From Polyangiales bacterium (lineage in GTDB: Bacteria; Myxococcota_A; Polyangia; Polyangiales; Houyiibacteriaceae): 64,000 bases of DNA. Location of the stretch: NCBI GenBank assembly GCA_965227405.1, contig OZ245758.1, forward strand, positions 1,641,693-1,705,692. The letters run 5' to 3'. Shown piece by piece: positions 5,358 to 60,722 of this stretch. The position numbers and the translations under genes were made by a program. Under the pieces are notes generated by a model. The model was given only the letters and a program-made list of their open reading frames with translations. It had not been told where the DNA came from and ran no database searches. Each line of letters begins with the position of its first letter. Position 1 is the stretch's first letter.

Positions 5358-5966
5358 CTAAGCAGCCGGCCGCATCACTCGCCAGCCCAACCCTAGCGAC
5401 GCCAATCCCAGCACACCCAGCATGACCACAATCGGCCAACGCTCACCTTCGCGCTGATCGTGCCACGCGCGAAGCTCGTCGAGTTCGCCCACGTACACAA
5501 CACGTGCCTGGTTGCCCTCAACCTCCAACGCCACCTGATCGCCTGGACGGATCGCTTTGACGATCACGACGTAGGGCGGTTGCATTCGCTCGCGCGCCTC
5601 TTCTTCGATCGCACCGACGACCGGCAAACCGGCCACGGACTGCACTTCCACGGTGTCCGCAGGCACCAACCCTTGCCACCGATCCGGCTGCGGAAAACGG
5701 TAGGTCTCTCCATCGACCACCACTTCCGGATCGCCTTCGGTCGCCGACCAGCTTTGTTCGAACGCTTGCGAGCCCGACCGCGCAAGTCTCACTTCGCCGT
5801 ACAAAAACGGCTCGCCCGCAGGCGACTCGTGCAGCTCGCCTTCGCCCACAGTGCCGACAACATCTCCAGGCACTTCCATTCCAGTTCCAGACACCGCGAG
5901 TTGGATCGACGCGTAGCTAAACCCGACGCCAGCGAGGAGAGCGATGATTCCGGCCAGTTGCTTCAC
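5358..5966 (-). CDS. membrane-anchored hypothetical protein, co-transcribed with ruvB
   Basis: N-terminal and C-terminal hydrophobic helices; start overlaps the ruvB stop by 4 bp. Confidence 0.5.
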
Positions 5967-7012
5967 TCGAAGAGTCCTTGCTGACCGCTTCCCTTCTTGC
6001 CCTTCTTCGTCTTCTTGGCCTTACCAAGATGTTTGAACGCCTTGGGAGTCGCGGTTCGCCCGCGAGGCGTACGCGCAATAAACCCTTGCTGCAACAGATA
6101 CGGTTCGTACACGTCTTCCAACGTATCTCTGGGCTCACTCAGCGCTGCAGCCAAGGTCTCGATCCCCACCGGCCCACCTTCGTAGTGGTCGATGATCACA
6201 CTCAGGTATTTGCGGTCCATCAGATCGAGACCTTCCCGATCCACGTCCAAGCGATCGAGTGCGTCGTCGGCCATCTTCACGTCGAGCGTGCCGTCGCCCA
6301 GCACCTCCGCAAAGTCGCGCGCCCGACGAAGCAGCCGGTTGGCGATACGCGGGGTTCCTCGCGCTCGACGTGCAATCTCCACAGCCGCATCGTCTTCGAT
6401 CGGAACGCCCAGCAACCCAGCGCTTCGCAACACGATCTTCGCCAGGTCTTCGGGCGGGTAGTAGTCGAGTCGCGCGGTATAGCCGAAGCGGGTGCGCATC
6501 GGATTGGTCAGCAACCCCGTTCGCGTCGTGGCACCCACCAACGTAAAGGGATGCAAGGGCAACGAGAGCGTCTGCGCATACGCGCCGTCACCTTGGACGA
6601 TGTCGATGCGAAAGTCCTCAACCGCACTGTAAAGATTCTCTTCGACCACCGGCGGCAAGCGGTGGATCTCGTCGATGAACAAAACGTCGTTGGGATCCAA
6701 CTTCGTCAGCAGCGCCGCCAGTTGTCCTTTGTGTTCGATTGCTGGAGCGGACGCCGCATGAAGAACCACGCCGCGTTCTTGCGCGACGATCGTCGCCAAC
6801 GTGGTCTTGCCCAAACCCGGCGGACCGCAAAACAACACGTGGTCGACCGGGTCGCCGCGTTTCTTCGCCGCTGTGACAAACACGCGCAGGTTATCTTTGA
6901 TCTTCTGCTGTCCAACGAACTCTTCGAACTCCGAAGGCCGTAGCGAAATCTCATACGCCTTTTCGCCCGCAGGCTGCGTCTCCGGATCGAGCGTTTCGTT
7001 GTCGCGCGTCAT
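5963..7012 (-). CDS. ruvB: Holliday junction branch migration ATPase RuvB
   Basis: Walker A motif [11 protein letters not shown] and the RuvB-specific N-terminus ..[18 protein letters not shown]..; overlaps ruvA by 4 bp. Confidence 0.95.
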
Positions 7013-7605
7013 CGAAGCGCTCCCAACGCGTCACGGAGGATCTCTTCGACCGGCTTCTCCGCAAGCTCGATCGACTCGACCGCGCGCTCGGCTTCGAAGC
7101 GCTTGTAGCCCATCTGCATCAGCGCCGCGATCACCGTGGCCGCCGGTCCCTCCGGAGTCGTCGGCTTGGGTCGCTGCACGTTGGGACGCGGCTTACCCGC
7201 TTTCGCGCCCACGAAAAGCTTGTCCCGCAGATCGAGAAAGATCCGCTCGACTGTCTTCTTCCCCACTCCCGGAATGCCTTTGAGCGCCGTTCGATCTTCA
7301 CGTGCGATTGCATCGGCCAACTGATGCGCGTCGAGCGCTCCCAGAATCGCCATCGCCGACTTGGGCCCCACGTTGGACACACCAAGCAGCGCACGAAACG
7401 CGGCACGATCGGTATCGGTCTGAAAGCCGTAGAGCGCCAGCGCTTCAGCACGAACATGCGTGTGGATATGAAGTGTGATGGGGTCGCCCTCGCTCACCGA
7501 TGCACCAAGCGGCACGAATACTTCGTACCCCACCCCTGCGACGTCGACGATCACCGTCCCGTCGAGACCGATTTCCGCGAGCACGCCCGTGAGTCGCCCG
7601 ATCAC
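7009..7605 (-). CDS. ruvA: Holliday junction DNA-binding protein RuvA
   Basis: MIGRLTGVL.. N-terminus, helix-hairpin-helix motifs [11 protein letters not shown] and [13 protein letters not shown]. Confidence 0.9.
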
Positions 7606-7662
7606 CAGGCGAGCCTAGCAGACTTCTATATGGAGTCTTTTGCTCTCGCGGCTGCCTATGCT

Positions 7663-8160
7663 TCAGCGTGCGCGTTGCTGGATGTCTGCCGCACGCAGCG
7701 CTTGCATGTGCGTGATCGCGATCGCCAGCGCGTCGCACGCGTCCTCTGCGGGAAGCGTTCGAATGCCCAGAAGCGCACCGACCAGCGAGGCCACTTGGTC
7801 CTTCTTGGCTGCGCCTCGACCGGTCACCGTCTTCTTCACCACCGCAGGCGGGTAGGCTTCGACGGGAAGGTCCGCACTGGCGGCTGCCAAGAGCGCCACA
7901 CCGCGTGCATGTCCCAACTTGAGCGCAGCGTTCGGATGCTTCGCGAAAAACACGTCCTCCACAGCCACGCTCACCGGCGCGTATTCGGCGATCACCTCGG
8001 CGAGACCGGCATGAATCACTTTCAGCCGAAGCTCGAGAGCTTTTCCCTTCGGCGCACGAATCACACCTGCGGCGATGAGCGTCGCGCGAGGCCCTTTGGT
8101 CTCGATCACGCCCCAACCGGTCTTTAAGGTGCCGGGATCGATACCGAGAACGCGCGCCAC
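7663..8160 (-). CDS. ruvC: crossover junction endodeoxyribonuclease RuvC
   Basis: N-terminus VLGIDPGTLKTGWGV.. carries the catalytic Asp; 165 aa; lies upstream of ruvA-ruvB. Confidence 0.9.
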   Translation of the reverse strand: MARVLGIDPGTLKTGWGVIETKGPRATLIAAGVIRAPKGKALELRLKVIHAGLAEVIAEYAPVSVAVEDVFFAKHPNAALKLGHARGVALLAAASADLPVEAYPPAVVKKTVTGRGAAKKDQVASLVGALLGIRTLPAEDACDALAIAITHMQALRAADIQQRAR

Positions 8161-8176
8161 GCTTTACCCTAGCACC

Positions 8177-10021
8177 GTGGTCGAGACGGGCGACGAGGAG
8201 TTGGCTCGCCTACGCCCGGTGTACGCCGGCGTGGGACTGCTCGTCGCTGTCATCGCGGCTGCGGGTGCGCTTGCCTACTACCTGCAAAGCGAAGTCGACC
8301 CAACGCGCGTGGTGATCGTCGCCACGGGCTGTTCCGACGCGTGTCGTGAGAACCTAGCGCGACGTGCCGAGTTTCTGATGGAGCAACGCGGTTTCGACGT
8401 GCGTGCCCATACCGGTTCACTCGAGCAAGCCATGCGTGAACACGACGCGCTCCACGGTGTGCACATCGAACTGACTCACGAAGCGCGTACACCTTTGGTT
8501 GAAGGTACGCATTCGCTCGAAGTCGTGGTGCAGACGACAAGCACGACACGCAACGAAGCAGAGAGAACATCGAGCTCGCTGACTTTTCTTCGCGAAGCCA
8601 ACACCGCGGACCGAGCGCTCTTGGACGCCGGTCTTGCCGGAGTCGATGCGCTGGTCTCGCAAATGGAAGTCGAGATCCTACGAAGCGCCACGATTGCTCG
8701 CTACGTGGCCGAAGGCGCGAATCCTCACGACCTCGATCGTTTTGAAGCGATCGATCGCGCGCGAAACGGCGTGGCGGACTACGAGCAAGGCCAAGTTCGT
8801 TTTGCCGAGCTATGCGACGAAGTCGCTCAAGAACTCACTGCGGATGGACTGCAGTGTCTCACGCGCAGTTGTGGCAACGAGTACTTGGTGGATGTCGTGG
8901 ATGCCGACACAGCGCTGGTACGTGTCGAAACTGCAGACCCGGTGTTTGTGTTGGGAAGCGCCTCGGACGTCAAACGCGCGGAAGTCCCCGAACGCTACGT
9001 GCTCGCAAAGACCGACGGGACGCGTCAGGACATCCTGGCCACCGGTAACCTCTTTAGCTCGGCGACGCTGTCAAACGACCAGCGCTATCTCGCGTACGTC
9101 GAAATCGCGAGCGAGGGCACCGCTGTGTTGGCGCGACTCGACCTCGAAACCGGCGAACGCAAAGTCGTGCACACGGTTGGTGCACCCGCGCGACTCTTCT
9201 ATCCGGACATTTCACCGAATGGACGTTGGATCGCGTTTGTGCATCGTCCCTTCGCCGGTGCCGATGCCACGATCTACGTCGCGGATACCGAGGGGGAGAC
9301 GTGGGAACCCGCCGAGTTCGCGATCCAAACCCACTGGGTTGAACTCACTTTGTCCGGTGCGTCCGAACCACTCTTGGCGGTGACGATTCCTGCGGAGCGA
9401 GACCAGATCGCACTTGATGCCGATTCCGGGATCGACGAGTCCGAGATCGACGACGACCTCGAAGAAGACGAGCCGGGTGTCAACGTCACTCGCGAACCCG
9501 ACGAAGAGCTACCGCCGTTGACCCACGTGGCGTTGGTTCGGCCCGGCGAAGAGAGTGGCGAAGTCGTCGCGCGAATCGGGGGTGTGCAGCGACACATCGG
9601 AACGGTGGTCGGAACACGCGACAACACGATCGTGCTCACAGGAGCGACACCCTTGATCGGTTGCGAACTCGCGACGTGGACGCCGAGTGAAGAGATGAGC
9701 CTCACCCCGCTACGAACGTGCATCGCGTATCCATCGATTGGGCCCGACGGCGCCTACTACGCCGATGCACCAAGCGAAGATGGAGACGCCGACATTGTGC
9801 GGGTGGATCCGGAAACGGGAACCACCACGCACTTGATGGACAACAACTTGCGCGATCGATGGGCACGCCCTGTTCAGGCCGGTGAGCAGACCCGAGTATT
9901 CTTCGAGCGCATTCCAGAGCGCCGTTACGCACGCCATCCAGTGGCGGGTGTGTGCTGGGTAGACCTGAACACGCCCGCACCCCCATCCGAGGTCACGTCG
10001 GACGTCCGTCCGGGGACGTAG
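8177..10021 (+). CDS. TolB-like beta-propeller (PD40 repeat) protein with N-terminal transmembrane anchor
   Basis: PD40-like repeats (YPDISPNGRWIAFV, DGTRQDILATGNL, RYLAYVEIASEG); the ORF-track start at 8075 overlaps ruvC, so I use GTG 8177. Confidence 0.55.
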   Translation: MVETGDEELARLRPVYAGVGLLVAVIAAAGALAYYLQSEVDPTRVVIVATGCSDACRENLARRAEFLMEQRGFDVRAHTGSLEQAMREHDALHGVHIELTHEARTPLVEGTHSLEVVVQTTSTTRNEAERTSSSLTFLREANTADRALLDAGLAGVDALVSQMEVEILRSATIARYVAEGANPHDLDRFEAIDRARNGVADYEQGQVRFAELCDEVAQELTADGLQCLTRSCGNEYLVDVVDADTALVRVETADPVFVLGSASDVKRAEVPERYVLAKTDGTRQDILATGNLFSSATLSNDQRYLAYVEIASEGTAVLARLDLETGERKVVHTVGAPARLFYPDISPNGRWIAFVHRPFAGADATIYVADTEGETWEPAEFAIQTHWVELTLSGASEPLLAVTIPAERDQIALDADSGIDESEIDDDLEEDEPGVNVTREPDEELPPLTHVALVRPGEESGEVVARIGGVQRHIGTVVGTRDNTIVLTGATPLIGCELATWTPSEEMSLTPLRTCIAYPSIGPDGAYYADAPSEDGDADIVRVDPETGTTTHLMDNNLRDRWARPVQAGEQTRVFFERIPERRYARHPVAGVCWVDLNTPAPPSEVTSDVRPGT

Positions 10022-10155
10022 TCCGTACGGACCCGAACCTGCTTCAAAACGGGCCGTTCCACCGACGTTTTTGGATCCAACGCTTGACACCAAGACGTTT
10101 TGATCGGGAGATCGTCAGCCCTTCCGGCGTAAGAGGATAGTCCAAGGAGGAATGG

Positions 10156-10728
10156 ATGAGCGATCTCGTCGATATCATCGAAGTAGCCAAGTCGGGCCGC
10201 GCCAAGTGCCGCTCCACCGGTGAGAAGATCCCCAAGGGCGAGCTGCGTTTCGGCGAAGCCTTCGTCAACACGTTCAGCAGCAGCGGCAGCATCTCCTACC
10301 GCTGGCACTTCCTCGAAGCCGCAGCGAAGCGCTTCCCGCTCAAGGTGAAGAAGGCGCTCGAGACGTTCGACGGTGACGTGCCCAACCGCGAAGCGATCGA
10401 CAAGATCATCGAAGAGGCCGGCGCCAAGAAGAAGAAGTCCGACGCGAAGAAGCCCGGTGGGTTTCCGTACGCGGACCGTGCACCGACCGGCCGTGCAGCG
10501 TGCATCGTCTGCGGAGAAAAGATCCCCAAGGGCAGCGTGCGGTTTGCCATCGAGCGCGAGATCGACACCGGCTCGTTCGTGCGCAAGGGCCCGGGCTACA
10601 TGATGGGCACCATGGTCAAGCAGTACTGCGAGGACGAAGGCTTGGACTTCGATGACTTCCTCGCATCCGTGAAAGCCAACAGCCGCGTCGTGAACGAAGA
10701 AGAGATCGACGAAGCCATCGCCGGCTAG
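10156..10728 (+). CDS. tandem degenerate PARP-type zinc-finger (zf-PARP-like) protein
   Basis: two ~90-aa internal repeats: AKSGRAKC..KIPKGELRFG..YRWHF and APTGRAACIVCGEKIPKGSVRFA..; strong Shine-Dalgarno AAGGAGG 7 nt upstream of the ATG. Confidence 0.7.
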   Translation: MSDLVDIIEVAKSGRAKCRSTGEKIPKGELRFGEAFVNTFSSSGSISYRWHFLEAAAKRFPLKVKKALETFDGDVPNREAIDKIIEEAGAKKKKSDAKKPGGFPYADRAPTGRAACIVCGEKIPKGSVRFAIEREIDTGSFVRKGPGYMMGTMVKQYCEDEGLDFDDFLASVKANSRVVNEEEIDEAIAG

Positions 10729-10869: not shown

Positions 10870-11691
10870 GTGCGTTGGGCGGCACTCCTCGGGGTTTTTG
10901 TTTGGGCGATTCCCGCCCCCGTCGACGCATGCTCGACCTGCGCCACGGGCGATCCCACGCTGACCACGCTCGGTTCCGGCGCACCTTATGCAGGTCGCGT
11001 ACGCCTAGGACTCGAGGTTCAGCACCGACGCGAAGACGTTCACGGCATCGAACTTCGCGAAGAGCGCTACGCGTTGGGCATCGCATTAAGCCCACACGAA
11101 CGACTCACGCTCACCGCAACACTCCCCGTCGCCTACCAACGCTTGCGACTGACGAACTTAGCCGAGGTTCGTCGCTGGTCGGTTGGCGACGCAAGCCTTC
11201 GCGCCGGCGTCACCCTCTATCAAGACCGTGCGTTCGACACGCGACACCTCATCGCGTTGATCGGCGGCATCGAAGCCCCGACCGCAACTCGTCCCAACGA
11301 TGTTCCGGTCGACCTGCAACTCGGTTCCCGAAGCTGGGATGCACTGATGGGCGTTCGCTATGCCTGGTTCGCGCAGCCCATCTCCATTCAAATGCACGCG
11401 TTGATCGCCGCCCCCATCGACGAGTCCGAGCGACGCGCGCGACTCCAAGCAACCGGCATCGCGCAATGGCAACCCATCGACAGCGTGGGTATGCGAGGCG
11501 GGATTCGCACCGAAGTTGAAAAGCGCACCGAACAAACCGGCGGTTGGGAAGTCGCTGCACTCGCCGGAGCAATGGTCCGGGTCCGCGAAACAATCGCGTT
11601 CGCTCAACTGGTCGTGCCGCTCGCACAAGACCTCAACGGTGGACACAAACGCGACTGGAGCGTCGAGATGGGAGTGACCGTTGACCTCTAG
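10870..11691 (+). CDS. secreted protein, possibly outer-membrane, hypothetical
   Basis: signal peptide MRWAALLGVFVWAIPAPVDA; beta-rich composition. Confidence 0.5.
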   Translation: MRWAALLGVFVWAIPAPVDACSTCATGDPTLTTLGSGAPYAGRVRLGLEVQHRREDVHGIELREERYALGIALSPHERLTLTATLPVAYQRLRLTNLAEVRRWSVGDASLRAGVTLYQDRAFDTRHLIALIGGIEAPTATRPNDVPVDLQLGSRSWDALMGVRYAWFAQPISIQMHALIAAPIDESERRARLQATGIAQWQPIDSVGMRGGIRTEVEKRTEQTGGWEVAALAGAMVRVRETIAFAQLVVPLAQDLNGGHKRDWSVEMGVTVDL

Positions 11692-12256
11692 GCTCGCTTT
11701 AGGACTCACGCTCGTGAGCATGTTCCGCTGCGTTGGCTATGACTCCGGAATCGAACTTGCGGTCGAATACCAAGCCGACTGGATCGAACGCGAAGGTCTG
11801 GTGCTGGACGAAGCGCGCATTTCAGTTGTCGCGCTCGAGCTGATCGAGTGCCCTCGCATCGCGTGGAACCCGTTTTCGGTGGCACGCGCACACGCACCTA
11901 TCGAAACCGAGCACACGCGAACGTTTGACGTGGTGACCCAAACCGAAGTCGACGGTGGGCTCATGCTTCCCGAACCTGGGTCGTACTGCGGCGTTCGGCT
12001 GCACCTGATGCCGCAACCCAGTCGTGACGCACACACGCTCTTGCTTGCTGGCGAAATGCACGGCGAGCCCTTCGTCGCGTTCAGCGATGACGCCGTCGAC
12101 ATCGACGTTCCCTGCGAATCGGCAGTGTCCCTCGACGAAGCATCGCGCACGCGAGCCGAGATTTTGCTTGAGCCTTCCGCATGGCTTCAGACACGTGACC
12201 TGAGCGTGGACTTCGATCCAAACAGCTTTCGCTGCCGATTCGTTTCGACGCCTTGA
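11681..12256 (+). CDS. hypothetical exported protein
   Basis: N-terminal hydrophobic segment LALGLTLVSMFRC; overlaps the upstream gene by 11 bp; alternative start is ATG 11720. Confidence 0.4.
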   Translation: MTSRLALGLTLVSMFRCVGYDSGIELAVEYQADWIEREGLVLDEARISVVALELIECPRIAWNPFSVARAHAPIETEHTRTFDVVTQTEVDGGLMLPEPGSYCGVRLHLMPQPSRDAHTLLLAGEMHGEPFVAFSDDAVDIDVPCESAVSLDEASRTRAEILLEPSAWLQTRDLSVDFDPNSFRCRFVSTP

Positions 12257-12309
12257 TCCTGCCGGACCAGCACTCCAAAGATCAGGAGGTGAAGGCGAGC
12301 GACGAAGGC

Positions 12310-13458
12310 ATGCGCTGGTTCGTACGGGTCCGTTGGGCGGCCGTACTTGCCGAAGTGCTTGTTGTTGGCGCTGCGACGGCGCTCGACGAAGTACTTCCGC
12401 TTGTACCCATGGGAGCACTCATCGCGGGTCAGGCGATCAGCAACGCGGTGATGCAGCCACATCCGCCGACCACACAGGCGGGTCGCACACTCATCCTCAC
12501 GCTCGATGTTGCGGTGTTGTTTGCGTTGCTTGCGCTGTCGGGAGGCCCCTCCAATCCGTTTTCCGCGCTCTTCTTTGTGCAGGTCACACTGGCCGCGGTG
12601 TTGTTACCGCGCACCGCAACCGCGTTTGTGTGGGCCAGCGCAGTGGTCGCGTACGGTGCGCTCTTCGCGATTCGTCCGGCGACACATCACCATGGCGGCG
12701 GTGATTTCGCGGTTCACCTCTACGGAATGTTTGCAGCGTTCGCGCTGACCTCAGGACTGATCGCGTACTTCGTCCATCGTCTTTCTGTTGCGCTCCGAAA
12801 AACCCGCTTGCGTGAAGCGCATGCACGCCGCGTCGCGAGCTTGACCACTTTTGCGGCAGGCGCTGCCCACGAACTCGGAACGCCGCTTGGCACGATCGCA
12901 CTCATTGCGAGCGAGCTGAGCGACCAAGTCGACGACGCCCACCGCGAAGACCTCGAGGTGATCCGCCAACAAACAGCGCGGTGTCGTCAGATTCTCGACT
13001 CCATTCACCACAAGGCGGGCGGAGTCGCCGGCGAGGGTCTCAGTGAACTCTCGTTCGAAGAACTCGCCGATGAGATCCGCATTCGCATTGGTCCAGACCG
13101 CGCCGCGCGACTTGATGTATCTGGTGAAGGCGATTTCGAAGGACCGAAACTCGCGTTCCTGCAGGTTCTCGAGAACCTGGTGACCAACGCGTTTGATGCC
13201 TCCGATCAAGAGAGTCGAGTCTCGCTCAGCTTCGACGCCGGTTCGTTACGTGTCCGCGATCGGGGAACCGGTATGGATGCCGAGACCCTCGCACGCGTGA
13301 CCGAGCCGTACTTCACAACCAAGCCCGAAGGGCAAGGCACGGGTCTGGGTCTCTTCGTCGCTGCGGAAACCATCAGCGCAGTCGGTGGCACGCTCGAGCT
13401 CGAGTCCACCCCAAACCAAGGCACGACGGTCACCGTGCATCTTCCAGGAGCTGCGTGA
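12310..13458 (+). CDS. sensor histidine kinase (RegB/PrrB/ActS-like)
   Basis: multi-TM N-terminus; H-box AAHELGTPLG; HATPase G-boxes DRGTGMD and GQGTGLGL; ORF-track start is 12253 but the first Met is taken at 12310. Confidence 0.8.
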   Translation: MRWFVRVRWAAVLAEVLVVGAATALDEVLPLVPMGALIAGQAISNAVMQPHPPTTQAGRTLILTLDVAVLFALLALSGGPSNPFSALFFVQVTLAAVLLPRTATAFVWASAVVAYGALFAIRPATHHHGGGDFAVHLYGMFAAFALTSGLIAYFVHRLSVALRKTRLREAHARRVASLTTFAAGAAHELGTPLGTIALIASELSDQVDDAHREDLEVIRQQTARCRQILDSIHHKAGGVAGEGLSELSFEELADEIRIRIGPDRAARLDVSGEGDFEGPKLAFLQVLENLVTNAFDASDQESRVSLSFDAGSLRVRDRGTGMDAETLARVTEPYFTTKPEGQGTGLGLFVAAETISAVGGTLELESTPNQGTTVTVHLPGAA

Positions 13459-14000
13459 TGGATGCGAAGAGCATTCTGATCGTCGACGATGACGATGTGT
13501 TTCGAACGCATATGGTTCGTGCGTTCGAACGACGTGAGTTGGAAGTATGGGCAGCGGAAGGCCCTGAAGACGCGCTCTTGCTTGCGCGTGAACACGTCCC
13601 CGAACTCGCCTTGATCGACCTGCGGATGCCGCAAGGCAACGGGCTCGACTTGATTCGCGATCTTCTCGACGTCGATCCGCACACGAACGTGGTCGTGCTC
13701 ACCGGCTACGGCAGCATTGCGACCGCCCTTGAAGCAGTACGCCGCGGTGCCACGCACTACCTGACCAAGCCCGCAGACCTCGACGAGATTCTGGGAGCGT
13801 TTGCCCGAAAGGGCTTGGAACCGGATGCGGATCCTCCTGAGATTCCGACCACAACGCCTTCGCTTGCGCGCGTGGAGTGGGAGCACATTCAGCGCGTGCT
13901 GACCGATTGTGGCGGCAACATTAGCCAAGCTGCGCGACAGCTCGGCCTTCACCGGCGTTCGCTGCAACGAAAACTCGCGAAGTACCCCGTGAAGCGCTGA
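13455..14000 (+). CDS. response regulator, REC plus Fis-type HTH (RegA/PrrA/ActR-like)
   Basis: receiver motifs ILIVDDDD, DLRMP and LTKP; C-terminal Fis-type [24 protein letters not shown]; ATGA overlap with the kinase gene. Confidence 0.85.
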   Translation: MMDAKSILIVDDDDVFRTHMVRAFERRELEVWAAEGPEDALLLAREHVPELALIDLRMPQGNGLDLIRDLLDVDPHTNVVVLTGYGSIATALEAVRRGATHYLTKPADLDEILGAFARKGLEPDADPPEIPTTTPSLARVEWEHIQRVLTDCGGNISQAARQLGLHRRSLQRKLAKYPVKR

Positions 14001-15815: not shown

Positions 15816-16040
15816 TCATGGGGTCTTGGGAAGAATCCTACGTGCACGTTTCTCGAATCGCTCGTTGGGCATGGGCAGCAGGGGCACGCCGTTCCGCCGG
15901 TTCCTGCGCCGACGCGACGCGACCCGTGTACCGTCGTGCCCGTGCCCATGCCCATGCCCATGCCCGTGCCCAACGAGCGTCGGAAAGAGACGCGTGCGCA
16001 GGAACCATCCCATGACCACAGGGTCAAAACCGCGCGACAT
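15816..16040 (-). CDS. small His-Gly repeat protein (speculative)
   Basis: 74-aa ORF containing (HG)6 encoded by a hexanucleotide repeat; lies between two same-strand genes, 18 bp upstream of 15798. Confidence 0.25.
   Translation of the reverse strand: MSRGFDPVVMGWFLRTRLFPTLVGHGHGHGHGHGHDGTRVASRRRRNRRNGVPLLPMPNERFEKRARRILPKTP
15936..15972. repeat. hexanucleotide tandem repeat (CCCRTG)x6
   Basis: gtgcccgtgcccatgcccatgcccatgcccgtgccc read directly from the sequence. Confidence 0.9.
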
Positions 16041-16974
16041 CCAATAGAATATCGACCTCGCAGGTCTTGCTCACCGCACCCTCTGTCGTTCCATCCGCAT
16101 TGACCTGCGCCGAGAAACTAAACCCACGCGGATCCAAACACGCAGGATCGTAACTGCCATCAAGCCCACCGACGGGCGCACTCGCCACGGTTGTCCACGC
16201 GTCGACGAAACCAAAATTGTTCCGCCTCAGGTACGTATGGAACGTCTCATCAAACGCTCCATCCTCGGTGATCAGCTCGACGTACACTTCGATGTCTAGG
16301 GCTGGCTGCGTGGGCGACGGGATCCGACACACCAAAAACCCATCGGTGTAGACAATTCGAACGCGCACGTTGGTATCCGGAAGCGTCTCGGGATACAGCT
16401 CACGATCACGCATGTACGGAAAGGGCGACGTGAAGTCGTCCGTCGGAATTCCCTCCAGTACCGCCACTGGCGTGAAGTCTGCATCATCACCGCACTGCTC
16501 GTTGGCGTCCTCCAATAGAATCGCGCCCTCTTCCGGCAAACCGGAATCGCGTCGCGTGCACGCCAAACCAGACGCCGCACACACGCATTCGTTCACACCG
16601 TCTGTCGCATCAAAGCGCTCGCCGTACTCGTAGTCGGTACCGTCATAGGTGCAGCCCGGACCCATCGACGTGCATTCACGCTCGGTGCATGCGCTGCTCC
16701 CGTCCGCATTGCAGTCACAGAAGTTGCACCCGTCGCCCGCGGGATATCGGTCGCCAGCTTCATGGTCGTCCAGACAACTCGAGCCCGCGTCCACGCCCGC
16801 ATCGGTTCCGGCGTCGACACCTGTATCCAGCTCCGCATCGACACCGTCCGTCGAAGCGTCCGTGCCCACGTCGGTGCCGCTGTCCACGACCGACACGTCC
16901 GTACCCGCGTCGGTCGGAGCACTGTCGTCTCCGCACGCGACCATCAACAAACAAACCAAGGCAAGTGACCGCAT
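16024..16974 (-). CDS. Cys-rich secreted lipoprotein, hypothetical
   Basis: lipoprotein signal MRSLALVCLLMVACGDD; Asp/Thr/Gly-rich linker; multiple Cys pairs. Confidence 0.6.
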   Translation of the reverse strand: MRSLALVCLLMVACGDDSAPTDAGTDVSVVDSGTDVGTDASTDGVDAELDTGVDAGTDAGVDAGSSCLDDHEAGDRYPAGDGCNFCDCNADGSSACTERECTSMGPGCTYDGTDYEYGERFDATDGVNECVCAASGLACTRRDSGLPEEGAILLEDANEQCGDDADFTPVAVLEGIPTDDFTSPFPYMRDRELYPETLPDTNVRVRIVYTDGFLVCRIPSPTQPALDIEVYVELITEDGAFDETFHTYLRRNNFGFVDAWTTVASAPVGGLDGSYDPACLDPRGFSFSAQVNADGTTEGAVSKTCEVDILLDVARF

Positions 16975-17936: not shown

Positions 17937-19472
17937 CTAAAAACCATCATCGAAGATCGGCACATCGTCGACGACTTGGTCTGACATGCCCATACCCATG
18001 CCCATCCCGCGCATGTTCATTCGTGGACGCATGCCGCGCATGCTCATGCCCATCCGTGAAGCACGGTCGTCTTCTGCCTCGGCTTCGGCTTCGGCTTCGG
18101 CCTCGGCTGCGACGGCGGCTGCGGCCTCGGCTTCGGCGACGGCTTCGGCGACGGCGTCGGCTTCGGCCTCGGCTTCGGCTTCGGCTGCGGCTGCGGCTTC
18201 GGCTGCGGCTTCGGCGGAGGATTCGGCGGAGGATTCGGTTTCAGCTTCGGCCGCGCTCCCAGCCGATTCCACGGGTGGCGCCGCAACGGGCAGAACCGGC
18301 TCGCCACTTCCGCCGCGGACAAGCATCACCGTCAACGCAAACGATGCGATCGCTACCGCAATCCCAGCAACGATGATCCAACCCTTCCGCGACTGCTCTT
18401 GGCGCGGACGCACGCCGCTTCCATCGCGTGTCGGAGCTTCACTTGCCTCAACTCCAGCTGGAACCGGCGCCGCTCCATCCAGACAAGCCGCCAGCATCTC
18501 ACGACGCTCATCCAGCATCTTGCCAAGGCTGCCCTCCAAGAGTGTGGCGATACGCGTCGCATCCACCATCGCCACCTCAGGAACGGCCTGGCCCAACGCA
18601 CGTCGGAACTCCAACGCAGTCTGATAACGATCGTCCGGATTCTGGGCGAGCGCCTTCATCACGACAGCGTCGAGTGCCGGCGACACCCCCGATCCAAACG
18701 CGCTCGGAGGTTTGATATCGGGCGCTGCGATCTGTTGCATCACGGCGAGTTCGTCACGACCGTTGAACAGTCGTCGCAACGCAAGCATCTCCCACAACAC
18801 CACGCCCATCGCATAGACATCGCTACGTCGATCGACGGTATCCCCGCGTGCCTGCTCCGGCGCCATGTAGCGCAACTTGCCTTTGAGCGAACCCGACCCC
18901 GTTTCGGTTTGGTGATGCCGGCCCCGCGCTTTCGCAATTCCGAAGTCGATCACCTTCACGTTGCCGTCCGCAGCCAACAGGATGTTCTGCGGACTGATGT
19001 CGCGGTGAACCAAACCGAGGAAGTTGCCGTCGGCCCCCTTGATATCGTGCGCGGCGTGCAAACCACTGAGCGCCTGCATCGCGATCCAAGCCATCTGTGC
19101 TGGATCCAGCGGCTCTTCGCTCATCGCGCGTGACTTGAGAAGCTGCGAGAGCGAAGCGCCGAGCAAATACTCCATGGCGATAAAGAGCACGCCGTCGCGT
19201 TCGCCCAGTTCTTCGATGTGAATCACGTTGGGGTGTTGGATCTTCGCGGCGAGTTTGGCCTCGTCGATGAACATGTCGACGAACTCGGAACTTTCGGCGA
19301 GATGGGGATGGATCACTTTGATCCCCACGGGTCGCGCAAAGCCCGCAGCACCCTCACGTCGCGCGAGATACACGCTCGCCATACCGCCGCCCGTTAAACG
19401 CGCGAAAATCTGATACGGCCCAAAGACCGAGCCGACGCCGACGTGTGCTGAGGCGCTGGGCTGAACCGCCAC
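17937..19472 (-). CDS. Ser/Thr protein kinase with one TM helix and low-complexity (AE)n / Met-Gly-rich tail
   Basis: Hanks motifs GMASVYLA, VGIKV, HRDISPQNILL, DFGIA, APE; TM GWIIVAGIAVAIASFALTVMLV; C-terminal AEAEAE.. and MGMSMRGMRPRMNMRGMGMGMGM. Confidence 0.9.
   Translation of the reverse strand: MAVQPSASAHVGVGSVFGPYQIFARLTGGGMASVYLARREGAAGFARPVGIKVIHPHLAESSEFVDMFIDEAKLAAKIQHPNVIHIEELGERDGVLFIAMEYLLGASLSQLLKSRAMSEEPLDPAQMAWIAMQALSGLHAAHDIKGADGNFLGLVHRDISPQNILLAADGNVKVIDFGIAKARGRHHQTETGSGSLKGKLRYMAPEQARGDTVDRRSDVYAMGVVLWEMLALRRLFNGRDELAVMQQIAAPDIKPPSAFGSGVSPALDAVVMKALAQNPDDRYQTALEFRRALGQAVPEVAMVDATRIATLLEGSLGKMLDERREMLAACLDGAAPVPAGVEASEAPTRDGSGVRPRQEQSRKGWIIVAGIAVAIASFALTVMLVRGGSGEPVLPVAAPPVESAGSAAEAETESSAESSAEAAAEAAAAAEAEAEAEADAVAEAVAEAEAAAAVAAEAEAEAEAEAEDDRASRMGMSMRGMRPRMNMRGMGMGMGMSDQVVDDVPIFDDGF
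18075..18255. repeat. hexanucleotide tandem repeat (GCYTCG)n, ~28 units, coding (AE)n in the kinase gene
   Basis: cggcttcggcttcggcttcggcctcggctgcg.. read directly. Confidence 0.9.
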
Positions 19473-19492: not shown

Positions 19493-20299
19493 TCAGTCAG
19501 GAACCGTCAGTCGGCCCGGCGGAACGTTGCCGTTGTACCGAGCGGTCGATCCTGCACGCGCACCGAGAACACCACCCAGCACAGCGCCGACCACAACAAC
19601 ACCGACGATGGTCCAAAGCACCGGCGAACGTCGTAGCGGACGAGGCTCATCGCCTACGACATCGGGTTGTTCGGACAGGACTTCTTGTTGCGCGAGTTCC
19701 GTCGGATCAGGAACCAGTGGAGTCCACTCGAGACCGGCCACATCGATGACGTGCTCGGCGCCTTCTTCCAACGTGAACTCAAGCTCGACTGCCCGGTAGT
19801 CCGCGCGTTCAACGCGTGCCGTGTGCGTGGAGGGATCCAATGGAAAGAGTTCCCCATACGCAGCCGCAGGAACATCCTCGTCGTCGATCGCAACCGTCAC
19901 GTTCCGAAACTCACCCGTCGCCACAATCCGCACGTTCGGAATTGCCGCTTCGAGTTCCTCAAGTGCGGCTTGTGCAACTCGGTTCTGCTGTCGAGCGCGG
20001 CGCCCTCGGGCATCGTTGGAAGAAAGAAAGCGTCGGTAGCTCTCTGCAGCCGCGACCCACATGCCCAGCTGTCGTTGGGTGCCTGCCAAGTTCAACAGTG
20101 TGGTCGAACGAGGCGAGAGTTCGTACGAACGCTCGAACGCATCGTGAGCTTCCTGCCAGTTGCGCTGTCGCGCTTCGCGAATCCCCTCACGAAAGAGGCG
20201 GCGCGCAACCGTGGTGCTACTCGCGCCTTGAGCCTCCACCAAATCCGCCCCCGACGAGAGCAGAACCACCATCGCGAGGAGGTTGGCAGCGACACGCAT
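19493..20299 (-). CDS. signal-peptide protein with TPR-like segment and C-terminal TM helix, hypothetical
   Basis: real gene is the 3' 268 codons of a longer antisense-extended ORF; N-terminus MRVAANLLAMVVLLSSGADLVEAQG; TM VLWTIVGVVVVGAVLGGVLGA. Confidence 0.6.
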   Translation of the reverse strand: MRVAANLLAMVVLLSSGADLVEAQGASSTTVARRLFREGIREARQRNWQEAHDAFERSYELSPRSTTLLNLAGTQRQLGMWVAAAESYRRFLSSNDARGRRARQQNRVAQAALEELEAAIPNVRIVATGEFRNVTVAIDDEDVPAAAYGELFPLDPSTHTARVERADYRAVELEFTLEEGAEHVIDVAGLEWTPLVPDPTELAQQEVLSEQPDVVGDEPRPLRRSPVLWTIVGVVVVGAVLGGVLGARAGSTARYNGNVPPGRLTVPD

Positions 20300-20351
20300 G
20301 CGCAAATCGTATCGAAAACCACGCGCCGCTTCTACTTGGTATCCTCCCCGC

Positions 20352-22073
20352 ATGCTTCGGCGTCTTGGCTTCGCGCTCGCGATCGTCGCACTCGGTGCGT
20401 GTGATGACGAAGCCACGCAGTTGATCGTGGTCGTCGACACAGACCTCGCGATCCCAAGCATGATCGACGGGGTTCGCTTCGACGTTTCGGGACGCGGCGC
20501 AACCGCCACGACAACGGCAGCGTTGACGTCGTCTACGCAACTGCCACTGACGTTGGCGCTTGAACCCGAAGGCGATCCCGGCTCAGTCGAAATCCGAGTC
20601 ACTGGCACAAGCGCTGGAAGCGACGTCGTCGAAGCGCGCGTAGACACCGAGTTTCTCACCGGCCAGCGGCGACTGGTCAACGTGTTCCTTTCCACGTCGT
20701 GCATCAGCGTGGACTGCACTGGATCAAACACCTGCGTGCAGGGCATGTGTCGCCCTTCGTTTGTGGCTCCTGAAGACCTTCCGCGCTTCGACGGAGAGCC
20801 GGGCCGACTCGACGGTGGAGTCGGTGTGGATGCGGATATTGGTGATGCGGACACCCCCGACGCGTTCGATGGTGGACGCGACGCAACTGTCGATGCTCCA
20901 CCCATCGATACCGGTGGTGTCGATGCAGGCTGCGGATGCGACGACGGCGTGACCTGCATCGACGGTGTCTGCGAGAACCGGCTCGCGGTCGACGTGTGGA
21001 TGGGCCAACGCTTTACGTGCATCGAACGCCGCGACGGCACGATCAGTTGCCTAGGCGACAACCGCAGTGGACAGCTCGGCGACGGAACAACCAACGACGC
21101 CCCGGTGTTGGCGCCGGTTGATGTGATCGGTTTTGGACCGGACGGTGATACCGCCACGGACGTTGCGCTCGGTTTCGACTCGGCGTGCGTGGTGACCAGC
21201 GGTCGCGAAGTGTTTTGTTGGGGCGCCAACGAAGCCGGGCAGCTCGGTGACGGAACCCTGGTGATGCGACCCGTTCCACAGCGCGTACCGGGGTTGAACT
21301 CGATCATCGACGTCAGCTCCGGCTCGAACCACACCTGCACCGTGGCTGTGTCCGGCGAGATCCAATGTTTTGGCGGCAATGCCGCGGGGCAACTTGGCGA
21401 CAACACCAACGACGGACGCAACACACCGGCGCCTGTCGTGGACGATCTCGAGGGTGTTCAAGTCAGCTGTGGCAGCGGCTTCACCTGCGCGATTCTCATG
21501 GACAACAACGTCGCGTGTTGGGGCGGTGGACTGAGCGGCGAGAACGGCAACTCGATGTTTATGAACACCGAGCGGCCGGACAACGTTGGAGGAATCAGCG
21601 GGATTCCCTTGGCCCTCACCACTGGAAGCGACAACTCGTGCGTCGCTTTCGCGGATGGCACCGTTCGATGTTGGGGCGCGGCTGACTTCGGTCGGCTCGG
21701 TGACGGAGGCGCTAGTGGTGGCGGCGATCAGTTCATGGCTGTCCCCGTGCCTGCGCTTGCAGGCGTCACGCAAGTCGCGAACGGACCCACTGCCTCCCAC
21801 GCATGTGTGAACGCTGGTGGAGATGTGTTGTGTTGGGGTGGAAACCGCTTTGGCCAGGTCGGCGACGCGAACGTCGGCATTCCGCGGCCGGTGCCCTTTG
21901 AAGTGTCCCTGCCGTCCGCTGCGATTGCGGTAGAGACTGGCGGCGTGTCGTCGTGCGCCGTGTTGGACACCGGACGCGTGTACTGTTGGGGCGAAAACGC
22001 GCGTGGTCAGTTGGGTGACGGAACGACCGACGACCGCGGCATCCCGACGGAAGCCACCGCATTTTTCCCGTAG
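20352..22073 (+). CDS. RCC1-repeat (beta-propeller) lipoprotein
   Basis: lipobox MLRRLGFALAIVALGACDDE; at least six RCC1-like repeats (..CWGANEAGQLGDGT.., ..CFGGNAAGQLGDNT.., ..CWGENARGQLGDGT..). Confidence 0.75.
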   Translation: MLRRLGFALAIVALGACDDEATQLIVVVDTDLAIPSMIDGVRFDVSGRGATATTTAALTSSTQLPLTLALEPEGDPGSVEIRVTGTSAGSDVVEARVDTEFLTGQRRLVNVFLSTSCISVDCTGSNTCVQGMCRPSFVAPEDLPRFDGEPGRLDGGVGVDADIGDADTPDAFDGGRDATVDAPPIDTGGVDAGCGCDDGVTCIDGVCENRLAVDVWMGQRFTCIERRDGTISCLGDNRSGQLGDGTTNDAPVLAPVDVIGFGPDGDTATDVALGFDSACVVTSGREVFCWGANEAGQLGDGTLVMRPVPQRVPGLNSIIDVSSGSNHTCTVAVSGEIQCFGGNAAGQLGDNTNDGRNTPAPVVDDLEGVQVSCGSGFTCAILMDNNVACWGGGLSGENGNSMFMNTERPDNVGGISGIPLALTTGSDNSCVAFADGTVRCWGAADFGRLGDGGASGGGDQFMAVPVPALAGVTQVANGPTASHACVNAGGDVLCWGGNRFGQVGDANVGIPRPVPFEVSLPSAAIAVETGGVSSCAVLDTGRVYCWGENARGQLGDGTTDDRGIPTEATAFFP

Positions 22074-22088
22074 GCGGTACGCTTCGGC

Positions 22089-23648
22089 ATGGCGAAGCGG
22101 CGTTTTGAGTTCAGCAGCGGTTCCTCGAACAAGTTTTGGGAAATCGACGTCAAAGGTTCGTCGCACACGGTGCGCTACGGGCGCATCGGAACGGACGGAC
22201 AAACCAAAACCAAAACACTCGCGTCGCCCGCCAAGGCTCGCGAAGCGGCGGACAAGCTCATCGCGAGCAAGATGAAGAAGGGCTACGTCGAGACCAAGGG
22301 CAAGGCCGCCAAGAAGCCTGCGAAGGCCGCCAAGAAGAAGCCCGCCAAGAAGAAGCCTGCGAAGAAGTCCGCGAAACGGTTCCCATCGACGAAGGCGTCG
22401 GCGAAACGAAAGCCCACCAAGAAGGCGACCAAGCGACCCGCGAAGAAAAAGCTCGCGAAGGGCAAACGCATCGACGCGCGATTGGTGCATGCCGTCGCAC
22501 CGAAGTATCCCGCCGGCTCGTTCGTCGGCGTGTGGGAAAGCGGAGCCGACTTGTGGGTCATCGGCGCAGACGACATCGGCAAAGAGGACGATGTCTCCAC
22601 CGCAGATGTGATCGACAGCGATGGCTTTGTTCAACGCTGGCGCTTCAAGTCGCCCAAAGAAGCCAAAGCCGCAGCGGCAGCGATCAAGAAGCAGAAGAAG
22701 CCCGCGAAAGGTCCCGCACCGGACTGGGTTAAAATCGACTCCGCGCTCAATCCGTTGATGCGCGCCAAGGATCTGCCCACGATTGCGCGTTACGACGTAG
22801 CGAAGAGCGGCCCGCTCACATTGACGCGGTCCACGCCCTTTGACTGGGTCCATCCGCGACCTGCATCACGTTGCTGGTGCGGGCGTGCCCTGATGCCGAC
22901 GTATCAACTCAGTGGCGCGGTCGATCCTCGTTTGGGCAAGAAGATCCGAATGCACATCTCGTTTTGCCCAGGCTCACTGCAGTCTCCGCACTGCGAAGGC
23001 ACGATCGAGGTGATCGTCGAGCACGAAGGTGCGAAATCCAGCGACGTCGTCGCCTACGAACTCATTGGCTACGGACGCAACAAGAGTTACGGGGTGCTGT
23101 CGCGAAGCGTGTTTTGGGATCCGATCGGGTCGGGTTTCCGGCATGCAGTGACGACGCACTATGGCGAGATGGGCACACCCGGGACAGTTCGTACCGAAAC
23201 GTTTCGGACGCGCAAAGAGGCCGACGAGTACTTCAAAAAGCGAAAGCCTCACCGCCCGGCAAAGCGAAGTCAGTTTGGGAAGTGGTACGCCGACGTACTC
23301 AAGGAGCGCGCCCACTTCCACCGCGTCCCAGGTTCGAAGCCACAAACGCTGCGCCTCAAGCCTCTGATGGCGCCGGCCAAAGTCAGCGGCAGCCCCTACG
23401 CACGCGTCGCGGACCTCTTCGACAATCGAGATGGAGTGGGTGGACAACCGAACTACACGCAGAGCGACTGGAGCGACACGTTTGACTGCGCCGCGTGTGG
23501 CAAGGTGATGCTCTTTGTGTTTCAGACGGGCTACGGCGCGCCGTGGTGGTGCGAACAACTCAACGACGGGGATGCAGGATCGTTTCAGTTCTTTGCGTGT
23601 CCGCACTGCAAGGGCCCACACGGTCGCGCGCTCTTTGAGTGCCACTAG
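22089..23648 (+). CDS. WGR-domain protein with histone-H1-like Lys/Ala/Pro linker and Cys-motif C-terminal domain
   Basis: WGR signature RRFEFSSGSSNKFWEIDVKGSSHTVRYGRIGTDGQTKTKTL..KKGY; linker AKKPAKAAKKKPAKKKPAKK; C-terminal CAACGK..FFACPHCKGPHG. Confidence 0.75.
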   Translation: MAKRRFEFSSGSSNKFWEIDVKGSSHTVRYGRIGTDGQTKTKTLASPAKAREAADKLIASKMKKGYVETKGKAAKKPAKAAKKKPAKKKPAKKSAKRFPSTKASAKRKPTKKATKRPAKKKLAKGKRIDARLVHAVAPKYPAGSFVGVWESGADLWVIGADDIGKEDDVSTADVIDSDGFVQRWRFKSPKEAKAAAAAIKKQKKPAKGPAPDWVKIDSALNPLMRAKDLPTIARYDVAKSGPLTLTRSTPFDWVHPRPASRCWCGRALMPTYQLSGAVDPRLGKKIRMHISFCPGSLQSPHCEGTIEVIVEHEGAKSSDVVAYELIGYGRNKSYGVLSRSVFWDPIGSGFRHAVTTHYGEMGTPGTVRTETFRTRKEADEYFKKRKPHRPAKRSQFGKWYADVLKERAHFHRVPGSKPQTLRLKPLMAPAKVSGSPYARVADLFDNRDGVGGQPNYTQSDWSDTFDCAACGKVMLFVFQTGYGAPWWCEQLNDGDAGSFQFFACPHCKGPHGRALFECH

Positions 23649-32301: not shown

Positions 32302-32458
32302 GCGCAGGAGTAAAGCACGCCGCATGCCACAAAGGTAGGAAGCCACTGGTTGGAAAGATCGAGGAAAACGGACCCGTTGGTTGGGGATCCTCACGCGATC
32401 GGTGGCGACCCCAGTTGCCAGAGGAGCCCTTCGAGTCGCCAGCAAGTAGGGTCCGGCG

Positions 32459-33625
32459 GTGCGCAGTGAATGGACACTCGAGCCGGACCTCGCCTTTCTC
32501 AACCATGGATCGTTTGGCGCGTGTCCGCGTGAGGTGCTCGATCGTCAGACGGCGATTCGGGCGCAGATGGAGGTCTCGCCCGTTCGCTTCTTCGTGCGCG
32601 AACTCGAGCCCATGCTCGCCGAAGTTCGCGACCAAGTCGCTCGTTTCGTCGGCGCCGAGCCCACGAACATCGCGCTGATCCGAAACGCCACCGAAGGCGT
32701 CAACGCTGTACTTCGCTCGCACACGTTTGCAGCGGGGGACGAGATCCTCGTCACGAACCACGGATACAACGCGGTCGCCAACTGCGCGCGTTGGGTCTGC
32801 GAGCGCTTTGGCGCGGAACTGAAGGTCGCCGATGTGCCCTTCCCGATCGCCGACGAAGACCAAGTGGTGGAGGCCGTACTCGCGGGCGTCACCAACAAGA
32901 CAGCGCTCGTCATCGTGGATCACGTCACGAGTCCGACCGGCGTTGTGATGCCGGTGAAGCGCTTGGTCGACGAACTCACACAACGCGGGATCCACACGTT
33001 AGTCGACGGTGCGCACGGCCCTGGCATGTTGCCCTTGCAGCTCGAGTCACTCGGCGCGGCGTACTACACTGGCAACTTCCACAAGTGGGTGTGCGCGCCC
33101 AAAGGCGCAGCGTTTCTCTACGTCCGCGAAGACCGGCAAACCGGTTTGGTTCCGCCGGTGATCAGTCACGGCTACAACTCGCCACGAGATCGTTCTCCGT
33201 TTTTGGAGATGTTCGACTGGACCGGCACGGGCGATCCCAGCGCGATGCTCTCTGTGCCCGCTGCGTTGCGCTTCATGGAACGCTTTGGAACCTGGGAGTC
33301 GATTCGCGAACGGAACCGCGCCGTGCTTTTGGAAGCGCGCGACTTGCTCTGCGACGCCCTCGACGTTGCACCACCGGTACCCGACTCGATGCTGGGGTTC
33401 CTCGCTGCTCTGCCGATTCCCGATGGTGATGCAGGCCCACCCAAGAGTTCTCTCTACATGGATGCGCTGCAGATCGTGCTCTATGAGAAGCACCGCGTGG
33501 AAGTCCCGATCGTGCCCTGGCCTGCGCCACCCAAGCGGCTCGTGCGGATCAGCGCGCAGGTCTACAACGAACGAAGCGACTACGAACGACTCGTCCAAGG
33601 ATTGAAGGCAGAGCTATGGAGCTGA
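32459..33625 (+). CDS. class V aminotransferase (isopenicillin N epimerase / cysteine desulfurase-like)
   Basis: fold type I PLP motifs; PLP lysine context ..YYTGNFHKWVCAPKGAAFLY. Confidence 0.8.
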   Translation: MRSEWTLEPDLAFLNHGSFGACPREVLDRQTAIRAQMEVSPVRFFVRELEPMLAEVRDQVARFVGAEPTNIALIRNATEGVNAVLRSHTFAAGDEILVTNHGYNAVANCARWVCERFGAELKVADVPFPIADEDQVVEAVLAGVTNKTALVIVDHVTSPTGVVMPVKRLVDELTQRGIHTLVDGAHGPGMLPLQLESLGAAYYTGNFHKWVCAPKGAAFLYVREDRQTGLVPPVISHGYNSPRDRSPFLEMFDWTGTGDPSAMLSVPAALRFMERFGTWESIRERNRAVLLEARDLLCDALDVAPPVPDSMLGFLAALPIPDGDAGPPKSSLYMDALQIVLYEKHRVEVPIVPWPAPPKRLVRISAQVYNERSDYERLVQGLKAELWS

Positions 33626-60700: not shown

Positions 60701-60722
60701 CGATTGCGCTACGCTTGGCTCG

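Follow-up and report, generated by a model that had tools for sequence, protein, structure and literature searches.

A tandem finger gene at the locus

We analysed a 64,000-nucleotide stretch of a Polyangiales bacterium genome (NCBI GenBank assembly GCA_965227405.1, contig OZ245758.1, positions 1,641,693 to 1,705,692 of the forward strand; hereafter the window, with positions counted from its first letter), and within it a gene at 10156-10728 that encodes a stand-alone protein built of two PARP-type zinc fingers (zf-PARP). Strand breaks in eukaryotic DNA are sensed, in the textbook case, by the finger of PARP1 and DNA ligase III (Lig3), to which the zinc site is considered integral. In the protein described here, and in its nearest relatives, neither finger retains a complete set of zinc ligands, and the gene is functional and under strong purifying selection. 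It is a plus-strand open reading frame (ORF) of 190 codons with an ATG start, and its parts and upstream signals are as follows.

10084..10114, plus strand: conserved upstream element, TTGACA (10084-10089) followed by GATCGGGAGATCG (10102-10114; inverted repeat CGATC/GATCG), from the upstream alignment
10144..10150, plus strand: Shine-Dalgarno sequence AAGGAGG, 5 nt before the ATG, read from the sequence
10156..10728, plus strand: coding sequence of the tandem zf-PARP protein, 190 amino acids (aa), 20.8 kDa, pI 7.6, supported by Pfam and by the ratio of nonsynonymous to synonymous substitution (dN/dS)
10156..10416, plus strand: finger 1 (aa 1-87, basic), AKSGRAKC motif with R15 and C18; R31, F40 and W50 conserved
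10417..10464, plus strand: Lys-rich flexible linker (aa 88-103, AGAKKKKSDAKKPGGF), low predicted local distance difference test score (pLDDT), indel-variable in the family alignment
10465..10725, plus strand: finger 2 (aa 104-190, acidic C-terminal helices), APTGRAAC motif with R113 and C116; R129 and G139 conserved

An earlier, sequence-only reading of this DNA had proposed a stand-alone tandem PARP-type finger that arose by internal duplication, and both parts of that proposal held. The Pfam model for zf-PARP (PF00645) matched the protein with an E-value of 1.2e-16 and 61.6 bits, above the curated gathering cut-off of 39.3, in two stretches, of which the finger-1 stretch spans residues 9-69 (coverage of repeat 1 ends at model position 62 of 87). 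Searching the sequences of the Protein Data Bank (PDB) with phmmer returned human PARP1 F1-F2 chains (E 3.3e-9), collinear over residues 2-131, and the Lig3 finger (E 1.1e-4). The family was split into an N-terminal half (residues 1-91) and a C-terminal half (99-190), and a profile was made of each; in hhalign the two aligned over 78 columns with a probability of 96.7% and an E-value of 3.4e-10, and the internal duplication is therefore real. A tandem zf-PARP protein is thus present at this locus, far beyond chance.

The gene is also probably expressed, as had been proposed, given a strong Shine-Dalgarno sequence, a G+C content at third codon positions (GC3) of 0.85, which is the top value among the ORFs listed in the window GC3 scan, and a dN/dS of 0.10-0.17. 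GGAGG is kept upstream of the homologs in the 5 relatives whose upstream DNA was aligned, and the minus-strand ORFs that overlap the gene are without support. Within that same alignment (the window plus 5 relatives), the TTGACA and GATCGGGAGATCG blocks are common to the window and the relatives' loci L084, L083 and L007, and their conservation suggests that they form the gene's own promoter or operator; a sigma-70 consensus scan called no promoter at 10084-10114. A scan for intrinsic terminators gave nothing convincing, with the 3' region folding like shuffled sequence (z = 0.16), and by eye we spotted no Myxococcus-type LexA box upstream (consensus CTRHAMRYBYGTTCAGS). Searching the six-frame translation of the window with the family hidden Markov model (HMM) found this single gene and no second, intact paralog. 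Neither NCBIfam nor PADLOC had a match for the protein, and the assembly index held no record of its exact sequence.

An unnamed family of two-finger proteins in Polyangia

A search of 5.8 billion proteins recovered 219 homologs, nearly all of them 175-195 aa, full-length and matching PF00645, with the best at 91% identity and 100% coverage (E 2.2e-109). The few that carry names come from Myxococcota, Polyangiaceae, Labilithrix and Kofleriaceae metagenome-assembled genomes (MAGs), and NCBI annotation gives one of them (P0036) the label "PARP-type zinc finger-containing protein". Scanning one genome per GTDB species gave 76 loci, the closest 70-72% identical to the window protein. Nearly every one of them belongs to Myxococcota of the Polyangia type (Polyangiaceae, Labilithrix, Kofleriaceae, Haliangiales and "Myxococcales" MAGs). 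A profile search run exhaustively over 1.84 billion representatives returned 1,624 proteins at E <= 1e-3, 86 of them at E <= 1e-30. With its length (the family runs to about 175-195 aa), two fingers, collinear homology and the motifs FPYADRAPTGRA and RxAxEREIDTG, the window protein is, by sequence, a member of an uncharacterised, unnamed and essentially Polyangia-restricted family of stand-alone two-finger proteins.

The module also occurs in longer proteins, of which we scanned 20 (including P0121, P0149, P0174, P0176, P0179, P0180, P0128, P0150 and P0131). Some carry it at the N-terminus of proteins of about 550 aa or about 950-1050 aa whose remainder has no Pfam or NCBIfam match, some carry it C-terminal to ankyrin, LRR, HEAT or TPR repeats, and some are arrays of 5-11 fingers. 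None of the 20 contains a WGR domain or a PARP catalytic domain (PF00644). The 11-finger array, P0121, has a weak C-terminal match to PNK3P (polynucleotide 3'-phosphatase), the sole DNA-enzyme signal among them.

Zinc-ligand loss in both fingers confined to one clade

Mapping of the ligand positions by the family alignment, by alignment of the finger-1 profile with PARP1 and by the repeat-repeat alignment gave the same answer all three times, placing them at residues 18/21/52/55 in finger 1 and 116/119/150/153 in finger 2. Relative to the zf-PARP set of C-x2-C ... H-x2-C (CCHC), finger 1 keeps only C18 (1 of 4, with T21, F52 and A55), and finger 2 keeps C116 and C119 (2 of 4, with M150 and M153), such that neither half has the complete set, in agreement with the sequence-only reading. 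That reading was also right that repeat 1 has lost its CxxC and that repeat 2 keeps CxxC and has lost HxxC; the part that does not stand is its "WHF" histidine as a retained ligand of repeat 1. In the finger-1 profile alignment W50-H51-H52-L-x-C55 lies opposite W51-Y52-H53-F-S-C56 of PARP1 (with R15 mapping to R18, C18 to C21, position 52 to H53 and position 55 to C56 of Zn1), and because H51 thereby aligns with Y52 of PARP1 and not with the ligand H53, it is not a canonical ligand.

The loss is derived and specific to one clade. Among 121 aligned sequences (the window protein and 120 listed homologs), 109 have full CCHC sets in both fingers. Degeneration of both fingers is seen in the window protein and its nearest relatives (P0001-P0008 and P0013) and in no other of the 121. 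A neighbour-joining tree groups these ligand-less sequences into a single clade, with the intact P0009 as its neighbour and P0010/P0012, likewise intact, next to that. Adding 150 representatives brought the full patterns to 195 and revealed 3 further losses, each in finger 2 alone. These three (P0191, CCHC-CSLY; P0224, CCHC-CSRC; P0251, CACC-CSLN) are unrelated and independent, with Cys-to-Ser at the second position as their common change, and finger 2 seems, on these sequences, to be more prone to zinc loss.

What became of the former ligand sites can be followed across the 8 full-length members of the ligand-less subclade.

Position 21: T, fixed
Position 52: drifts among F, L, K and V
Position 55: A in 7 members, P in 1
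Position 119: drifts among C, S and T (S or T in 6 of 8)
Position 150: drifts among M, L and R
Position 153: drifts among M, Q, H, A and S

Given the drift at position 119 and at other former ligand sites, the residual CxxC of finger 2 in the window protein is most simply read as a leftover rather than a working half-site. The first Cys of each finger (C18 and C116) is invariant. Six residues are fixed in the clade and absent from its intact sisters (T21, A55, F60, K66, C158 and L163), and several of these changes are hydrophobic and could be compensatory substitutions in the domain core. The species-representative scan detected one copy per subclade genome, so that the ligand-less form appears to have replaced the intact one rather than to be a spare paralog.

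Predicted structure, selection and DNA-contact residues

AlphaFold2 with a 116-sequence alignment predicted two domains, each a β-sheet plus helix like Zn1 and Zn2 of PARP1, with a mean pLDDT of 91.6 and a predicted template modelling score (pTM) of 0.63. Restricting the alignment to the 8 ligand-less sequences lowered these values (pLDDT 85.0, pTM 0.49) and left the secondary-structure layout unchanged. For both models, zf-PARP structures (PARP1 and the Lig3 finger) were the sole Foldseek matches in the PDB at E < 0.04, led by the PARP1 N-terminal domains on nicked DNA (9mi8, 2.5e-9) and PARP1 F1F2 on a single-strand break (2n8a, 8.3e-9 to 1.2e-8), and including isolated Zn1 and Zn2 on DNA and the Lig3 finger. 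Linker residues 92-98 fell below a pLDDT of 50 in the subclade-only model (78 in that block of the deep-alignment model), and the pTM values of 0.49-0.63 gave no support for a fixed inter-finger interface in either model. Together, the models favour a PARP1-like arrangement in which the fingers are independent of each other and joined by a flexible basic tether.

Selection on the gene was evaluated by the Nei-Gojobori method between the window gene and its two closest relatives.

L084 (P0001, 91% amino-acid identity): dN/dS 0.098, dS 0.60
L083 (P0002, 85% amino-acid identity): dN/dS 0.173, dS 0.59

Clade members are 70-91% identical to the window protein and the ORF is intact in all of them, with a mean column identity of 80% and 85 invariant columns across 8 members. 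Across 116 family sequences the invariant residues include R15, R31, F40, W50, R113, R129 and G139, and several of these coincide with DNA contacts of PARP1. R15 and R113 align with PARP1 R18, and R31 and R129 with PARP1 R34. In PARP1, R18 and R122 make up the "phosphate backbone grip" of Zn1 and Zn2, and F44 with L161/I164 the "base stacking loop" (PMC8150716). In the window protein F40 occupies the loop, one position off PARP1 F44 in the sequence alignment, and we assign it as the stacking residue tentatively. Both the grip arginines and a hydrophobic loop residue, the DNA-contact signature of zf-PARP, are thus found in the alignment.

Genomic neighbourhood

The remaining features of the window that bear on the gene's context are these.

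5963-7012, minus strand: ruvB, upstream of the zf-PARP gene
7009-7605, minus strand: ruvA, upstream of the zf-PARP gene
7663-8160, minus strand: ruvC, upstream of the zf-PARP gene
8075-10021: 648-aa protein between ruvC and the zf-PARP gene, hydrophobic over an N-terminal stretch and weakly matching TolB/PD40-like models
20283-22073, plus strand: RCC1-repeat (RLD) protein, ending 15 nt before the WGR gene
22089-23648, plus strand: WGR-domain protein, 519 aa, 11.4 kb from the zf-PARP gene, with an N-terminal WGR and the rest unrecognised
42279-45953, plus strand: SNF2-family helicase, 1224 aa, 31.5 kb from the zf-PARP gene

The ruvCAB set thus lies 2-4 kb upstream of the zf-PARP gene, contiguous in the window (5963-8160, minus strand); in L083 and L084 (4207-8070), two extra genes stand between ruvC and ruvA, a TPR protein and a 270-aa unknown. 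The order of ruvC, a protein of about 600 aa and the zf-PARP gene is common to L084, L083 and L007 and looser in L008 and L009. Downstream of the gene come two ORFs of no recognised type, a histidine kinase, a response regulator and a major facilitator superfamily (MFS) transporter. An MFS gene follows the zf-PARP gene in L084, L083, L007 and L009 and not in L008. In the window (10870-14000, plus strand) and in L084 the two unrecognised ORFs, the histidine kinase and the Fis-type response regulator precede it, and in L083, L007 and L009 it stands directly after the zf-PARP gene, which marks the four-gene block as a lineage-specific insertion. Clustering the ORFs of the 76 species loci produced no family-wide neighbour, only lineage-specific synteny, examples being a putative secreted protein and an acyl-CoA dehydrogenase in about 21-24 of the 76.

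The WGR protein and the SNF2 helicase named by the sequence-only reading are both encoded in the window, and each has features of its own. The RCC1-then-WGR gene pair recurs in L083 (15061-16836 and 16870-18315), and this recurrence makes the RCC1 protein, rather than the zf-PARP protein, the likely partner of the WGR protein. The SNF2 helicase has an N-terminal region of about 770 aa without a Pfam match, matches PADLOC DpdE models at E 1.5e-203 and ZorD-like models also very strongly, and falls below the cut-offs of the NCBIfam SCO1167-family and pilus-regulating Snf2 models. Between the zf-PARP gene and these two lie a two-component system, the MFS transporter, kinases, a desaturase and others, including units on the opposite strand.

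With the window WGR and SNF2 proteins as queries against all fetched loci, tblastn found neither, and phmmer found the WGR protein in L084 and L083 only and the SNF2 protein nowhere. In none of the 76 other-species loci did the searches place either protein less than about 10 kb from the homolog (these were single-sequence queries, which a very divergent WGR could escape), and neither turned up in 3 loci with precomputed Pfam calls. Domain scans of about 50 window ORFs (a few short ORFs fell outside the scan) found no PARP catalytic (PF00644), macro or PARG domain.

Elsewhere in the window there are a Coq4 homolog, a papain-like protease with two proprotein-convertase P-domains, a pacifastin-inhibitor-like match and two Ser/Thr protein kinases (as listed, 39480-40211, 30415-32502, 16024-16974 and 17937-19472 on the minus strand and 60612-62222 on the plus strand). 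Scattered eukaryote-like or otherwise unusual domains of this sort are typical of Myxococcota gene content. A mobile element is also present, an IS3-type transposase at 53290-54494 (minus strand) made up of an rve integrase-core ORF with HTH_21 (53290-54162) preceded by a small ORF (54159-54494).

Interpretation and alternatives

To bring these observations together, we lean towards reading the window protein as a stand-alone, zinc-independent protein that would bind DNA breaks or particular DNA structures, most likely recognising discontinuities through an arginine grip and loop hydrophobics, and would have no enzymatic output, a reading we hold to be somewhat better than even. The ancestral form of the family would have bound one zinc per finger (CCHC), and in a single evolutionary episode the clade lost three of four ligands in finger 1 and two to three of four in finger 2. 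Side-chain packing (T21, F52, A55, F60, M/L150, C158 and L163) would presumably now hold the fold. The invariant R15/R113 and R31/R129 would most likely grip the DNA backbone, and F40 in finger 1 and F141 in finger 2 would probably stack on bases exposed at a nick, gap or end, as in Zn1 and Zn2 of PARP1. As no catalytic domain is attached, the protein would act through occupancy, protection or recruitment, and not by ADP-ribosylation.

Several observations pull the other way. Neighbourhoods differ completely beyond the subclade and lend no functional support, with the proximity of ruvCAB confined to the close subclade, and the literature searches on prokaryotic zf-PARP proteins gave general PARP reviews only. 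A survey of bacterial PARPs lists WGR+PARP architectures only (PMC4245714). The partners to which the module is fused are protein-interaction repeats (ANK, LRR, HEAT, TPR) and not DNA enzymes, and they suggest that the fingers may be a protein-interaction or RNA-binding adaptor in which DNA-break recognition was lost or never present in bacteria. The unannotated regions of other longer proteins, the weak PNK3P match as the sole DNA-enzyme signal among the 20 scanned, and the lack of a conserved DNA-repair neighbourhood across the family also speak for this adaptor. We consider such an adaptor unlikely, if worth keeping in view, because the arginines and loop aromatic aligned with PARP1's DNA contacts are invariant family-wide, finger 1 is basic (pI 9.3), the linker is Lys-rich, and every one of the nearest solved structures is a break sensor bound to DNA. 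Zinc independence itself faces two further objections. AlphaFold models the chain without zinc and was trained on the zinc-bound fold, so a confident model is no proof of metal-free folding, and the conservation of C18, C116 and the new C158 makes a residual or remodelled metal or redox site possible. Such a site might draw on C18, H51, C116 and C158 and might even bridge the fingers so that the two halves complement each other, an arrangement that the sequence-only reading had raised; C158 is fixed in 8 of 8 subclade members (V, L or A elsewhere) and H51 is present in 7 of 8. H51 is, however, Tyr in P0006 and is ancestral to the family instead of newly acquired. A site within one finger of the window copy would require C119, a position held by S or T in most members, and the models show a disordered linker and no confident packing between the domains, so that a shared site is not favoured and we regard a remodelled one as improbable.

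Two readings fare worse still. That the zf-PARP protein, the WGR protein and the SNF2 helicase are separated modules of one PARP-like damage-sensing machine and act together, as the sequence-only reading had it, draws on the presence of all three domain types within 64 kb, on a WGR gene 5-11 kb downstream in the window and its two closest relatives, and on the nearby ruvCAB. Of the two marks of a PARP-like system, a catalytic domain was not found in the window ORFs scanned, nor a conserved WGR/SNF2 linkage in the other-species loci within about 10 kb; the genes are separated by the distances and unrelated units described above, the WGR gene pairs with an RCC1-repeat gene, the SNF2 protein resembles generic bacterial SNF2/DpdE/ZorD-like models, and the tandem-module fusions examined have neither WGR nor PARP. 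Being confined to those nearest relatives (85-91% identity), the WGR linkage is plain synteny, and the three-gene machine is left unsupported and, in our judgement, very improbable. Least probable of all is a decaying relic, in which a finger with 5 of its 8 canonical ligands gone would be heading towards a pseudogene; this is effectively refuted by the low dN/dS, by ORFs intact in every member and by the conserved columns of the clade, and the retained ribosome-binding motif and high GC3 also run against it.

If the zinc-independent sensor is correct, it would be the first case of a zf-PARP fold that does without zinc, and it would offer a minimal model of F1F2-style nick recognition with no catalysis attached. 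The ligand-less clade amounts to a natural experiment on what zinc contributes and on what break binding can achieve by itself, without ADP-ribosylation. Break-sensing fingers of the PARP type are usually treated as a eukaryotic invention. More broadly, and more tentatively, an autonomous two-finger sensor may operate across a bacterial class, with one lineage that has working, naturally zinc-free fingers. A stronger version, conceivable still, would place the Polyangia family at the prokaryotic origin of the PARP1/Lig3 finger, or make it that finger's ancient sibling, rather than the product of a eukaryote-to-bacterium transfer. Either way, the family adds to the eukaryote-like modules of Myxococcota (WGR, RCC1, ANK, Ser/Thr kinases) and bears on the origin of DNA-damage-response domains. 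The practical importance is modest: Pfam and NCBI annotation already recognise the domain, and the novelty lies in the variant and in the pattern of its evolution.

Comparison with known systems

We compared profiles of the two bacterial fingers with PARP1 and Lig3 chains.

Finger 1 profile: Lig3 finger 49.7 bits (E 2.8e-12); PARP1 Zn1-only about 34.5 bits; Zn2-only about 30 bits
Finger 2 profile: Lig3 finger not listed at E <= 1; PARP1 Zn1-only about 26 bits; Zn2-only about 18 bits

We rejected a scheme in which repeat 1 is the ortholog of PARP1 F1 and repeat 2 that of F2: both repeats score slightly higher against Zn1, so the two do not pair off as orthologs of F1 and F2, and the bacterial duplication was probably independent of the one in PARP1. 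PARP1 Zn1-Zn2 (2n8a, 4av1, 9mi8, 3oda, 3odc) is among the closest known systems, sharing two tandem zf-PARP domains, a flexible basic linker, a collinear alignment, the best structural matches to the window models and the conserved arginines of GRAxC and LR(F/M). Against it stand the absence of Zn3, BRCT, WGR and catalytic domains from the window protein, its largely vanished zinc ligands and the divergent C-terminal helices of each repeat.

The Lig3 finger is a nick sensor that works without ADP-ribosylation, and among single-domain sequences the finger of DNA ligase III alpha (1uw0) matches the finger-1 profile best. It is a single finger on a ligase with an intact CCHC, unlike the window protein with its two fingers, no enzyme and degenerate ligands. 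Nearer to hand, the unnamed Polyangia family (P0036, Labilithrix and Kofleriaceae MAG proteins) shares length, architecture and motifs at 43-59% full-length identity and differs from the window subclade in keeping CCHC in both fingers in the great majority of its members. For the loss itself, the nearest parallel may be the zinc-free "C-minus" zinc-ribbon ribosomal proteins, reportedly described by Makarova, Ponomarev and Koonin in 2001 ("Two C or not two C"; cited in PMC10038286). As in the subclade described here, a small zinc-stabilised fold persists there without Cys ligands, still functional under selection; the fold and function are different, and a C-plus paralog under Zur control is usually present beside the C-minus form, whereas the window subclade has the one detected copy per genome.

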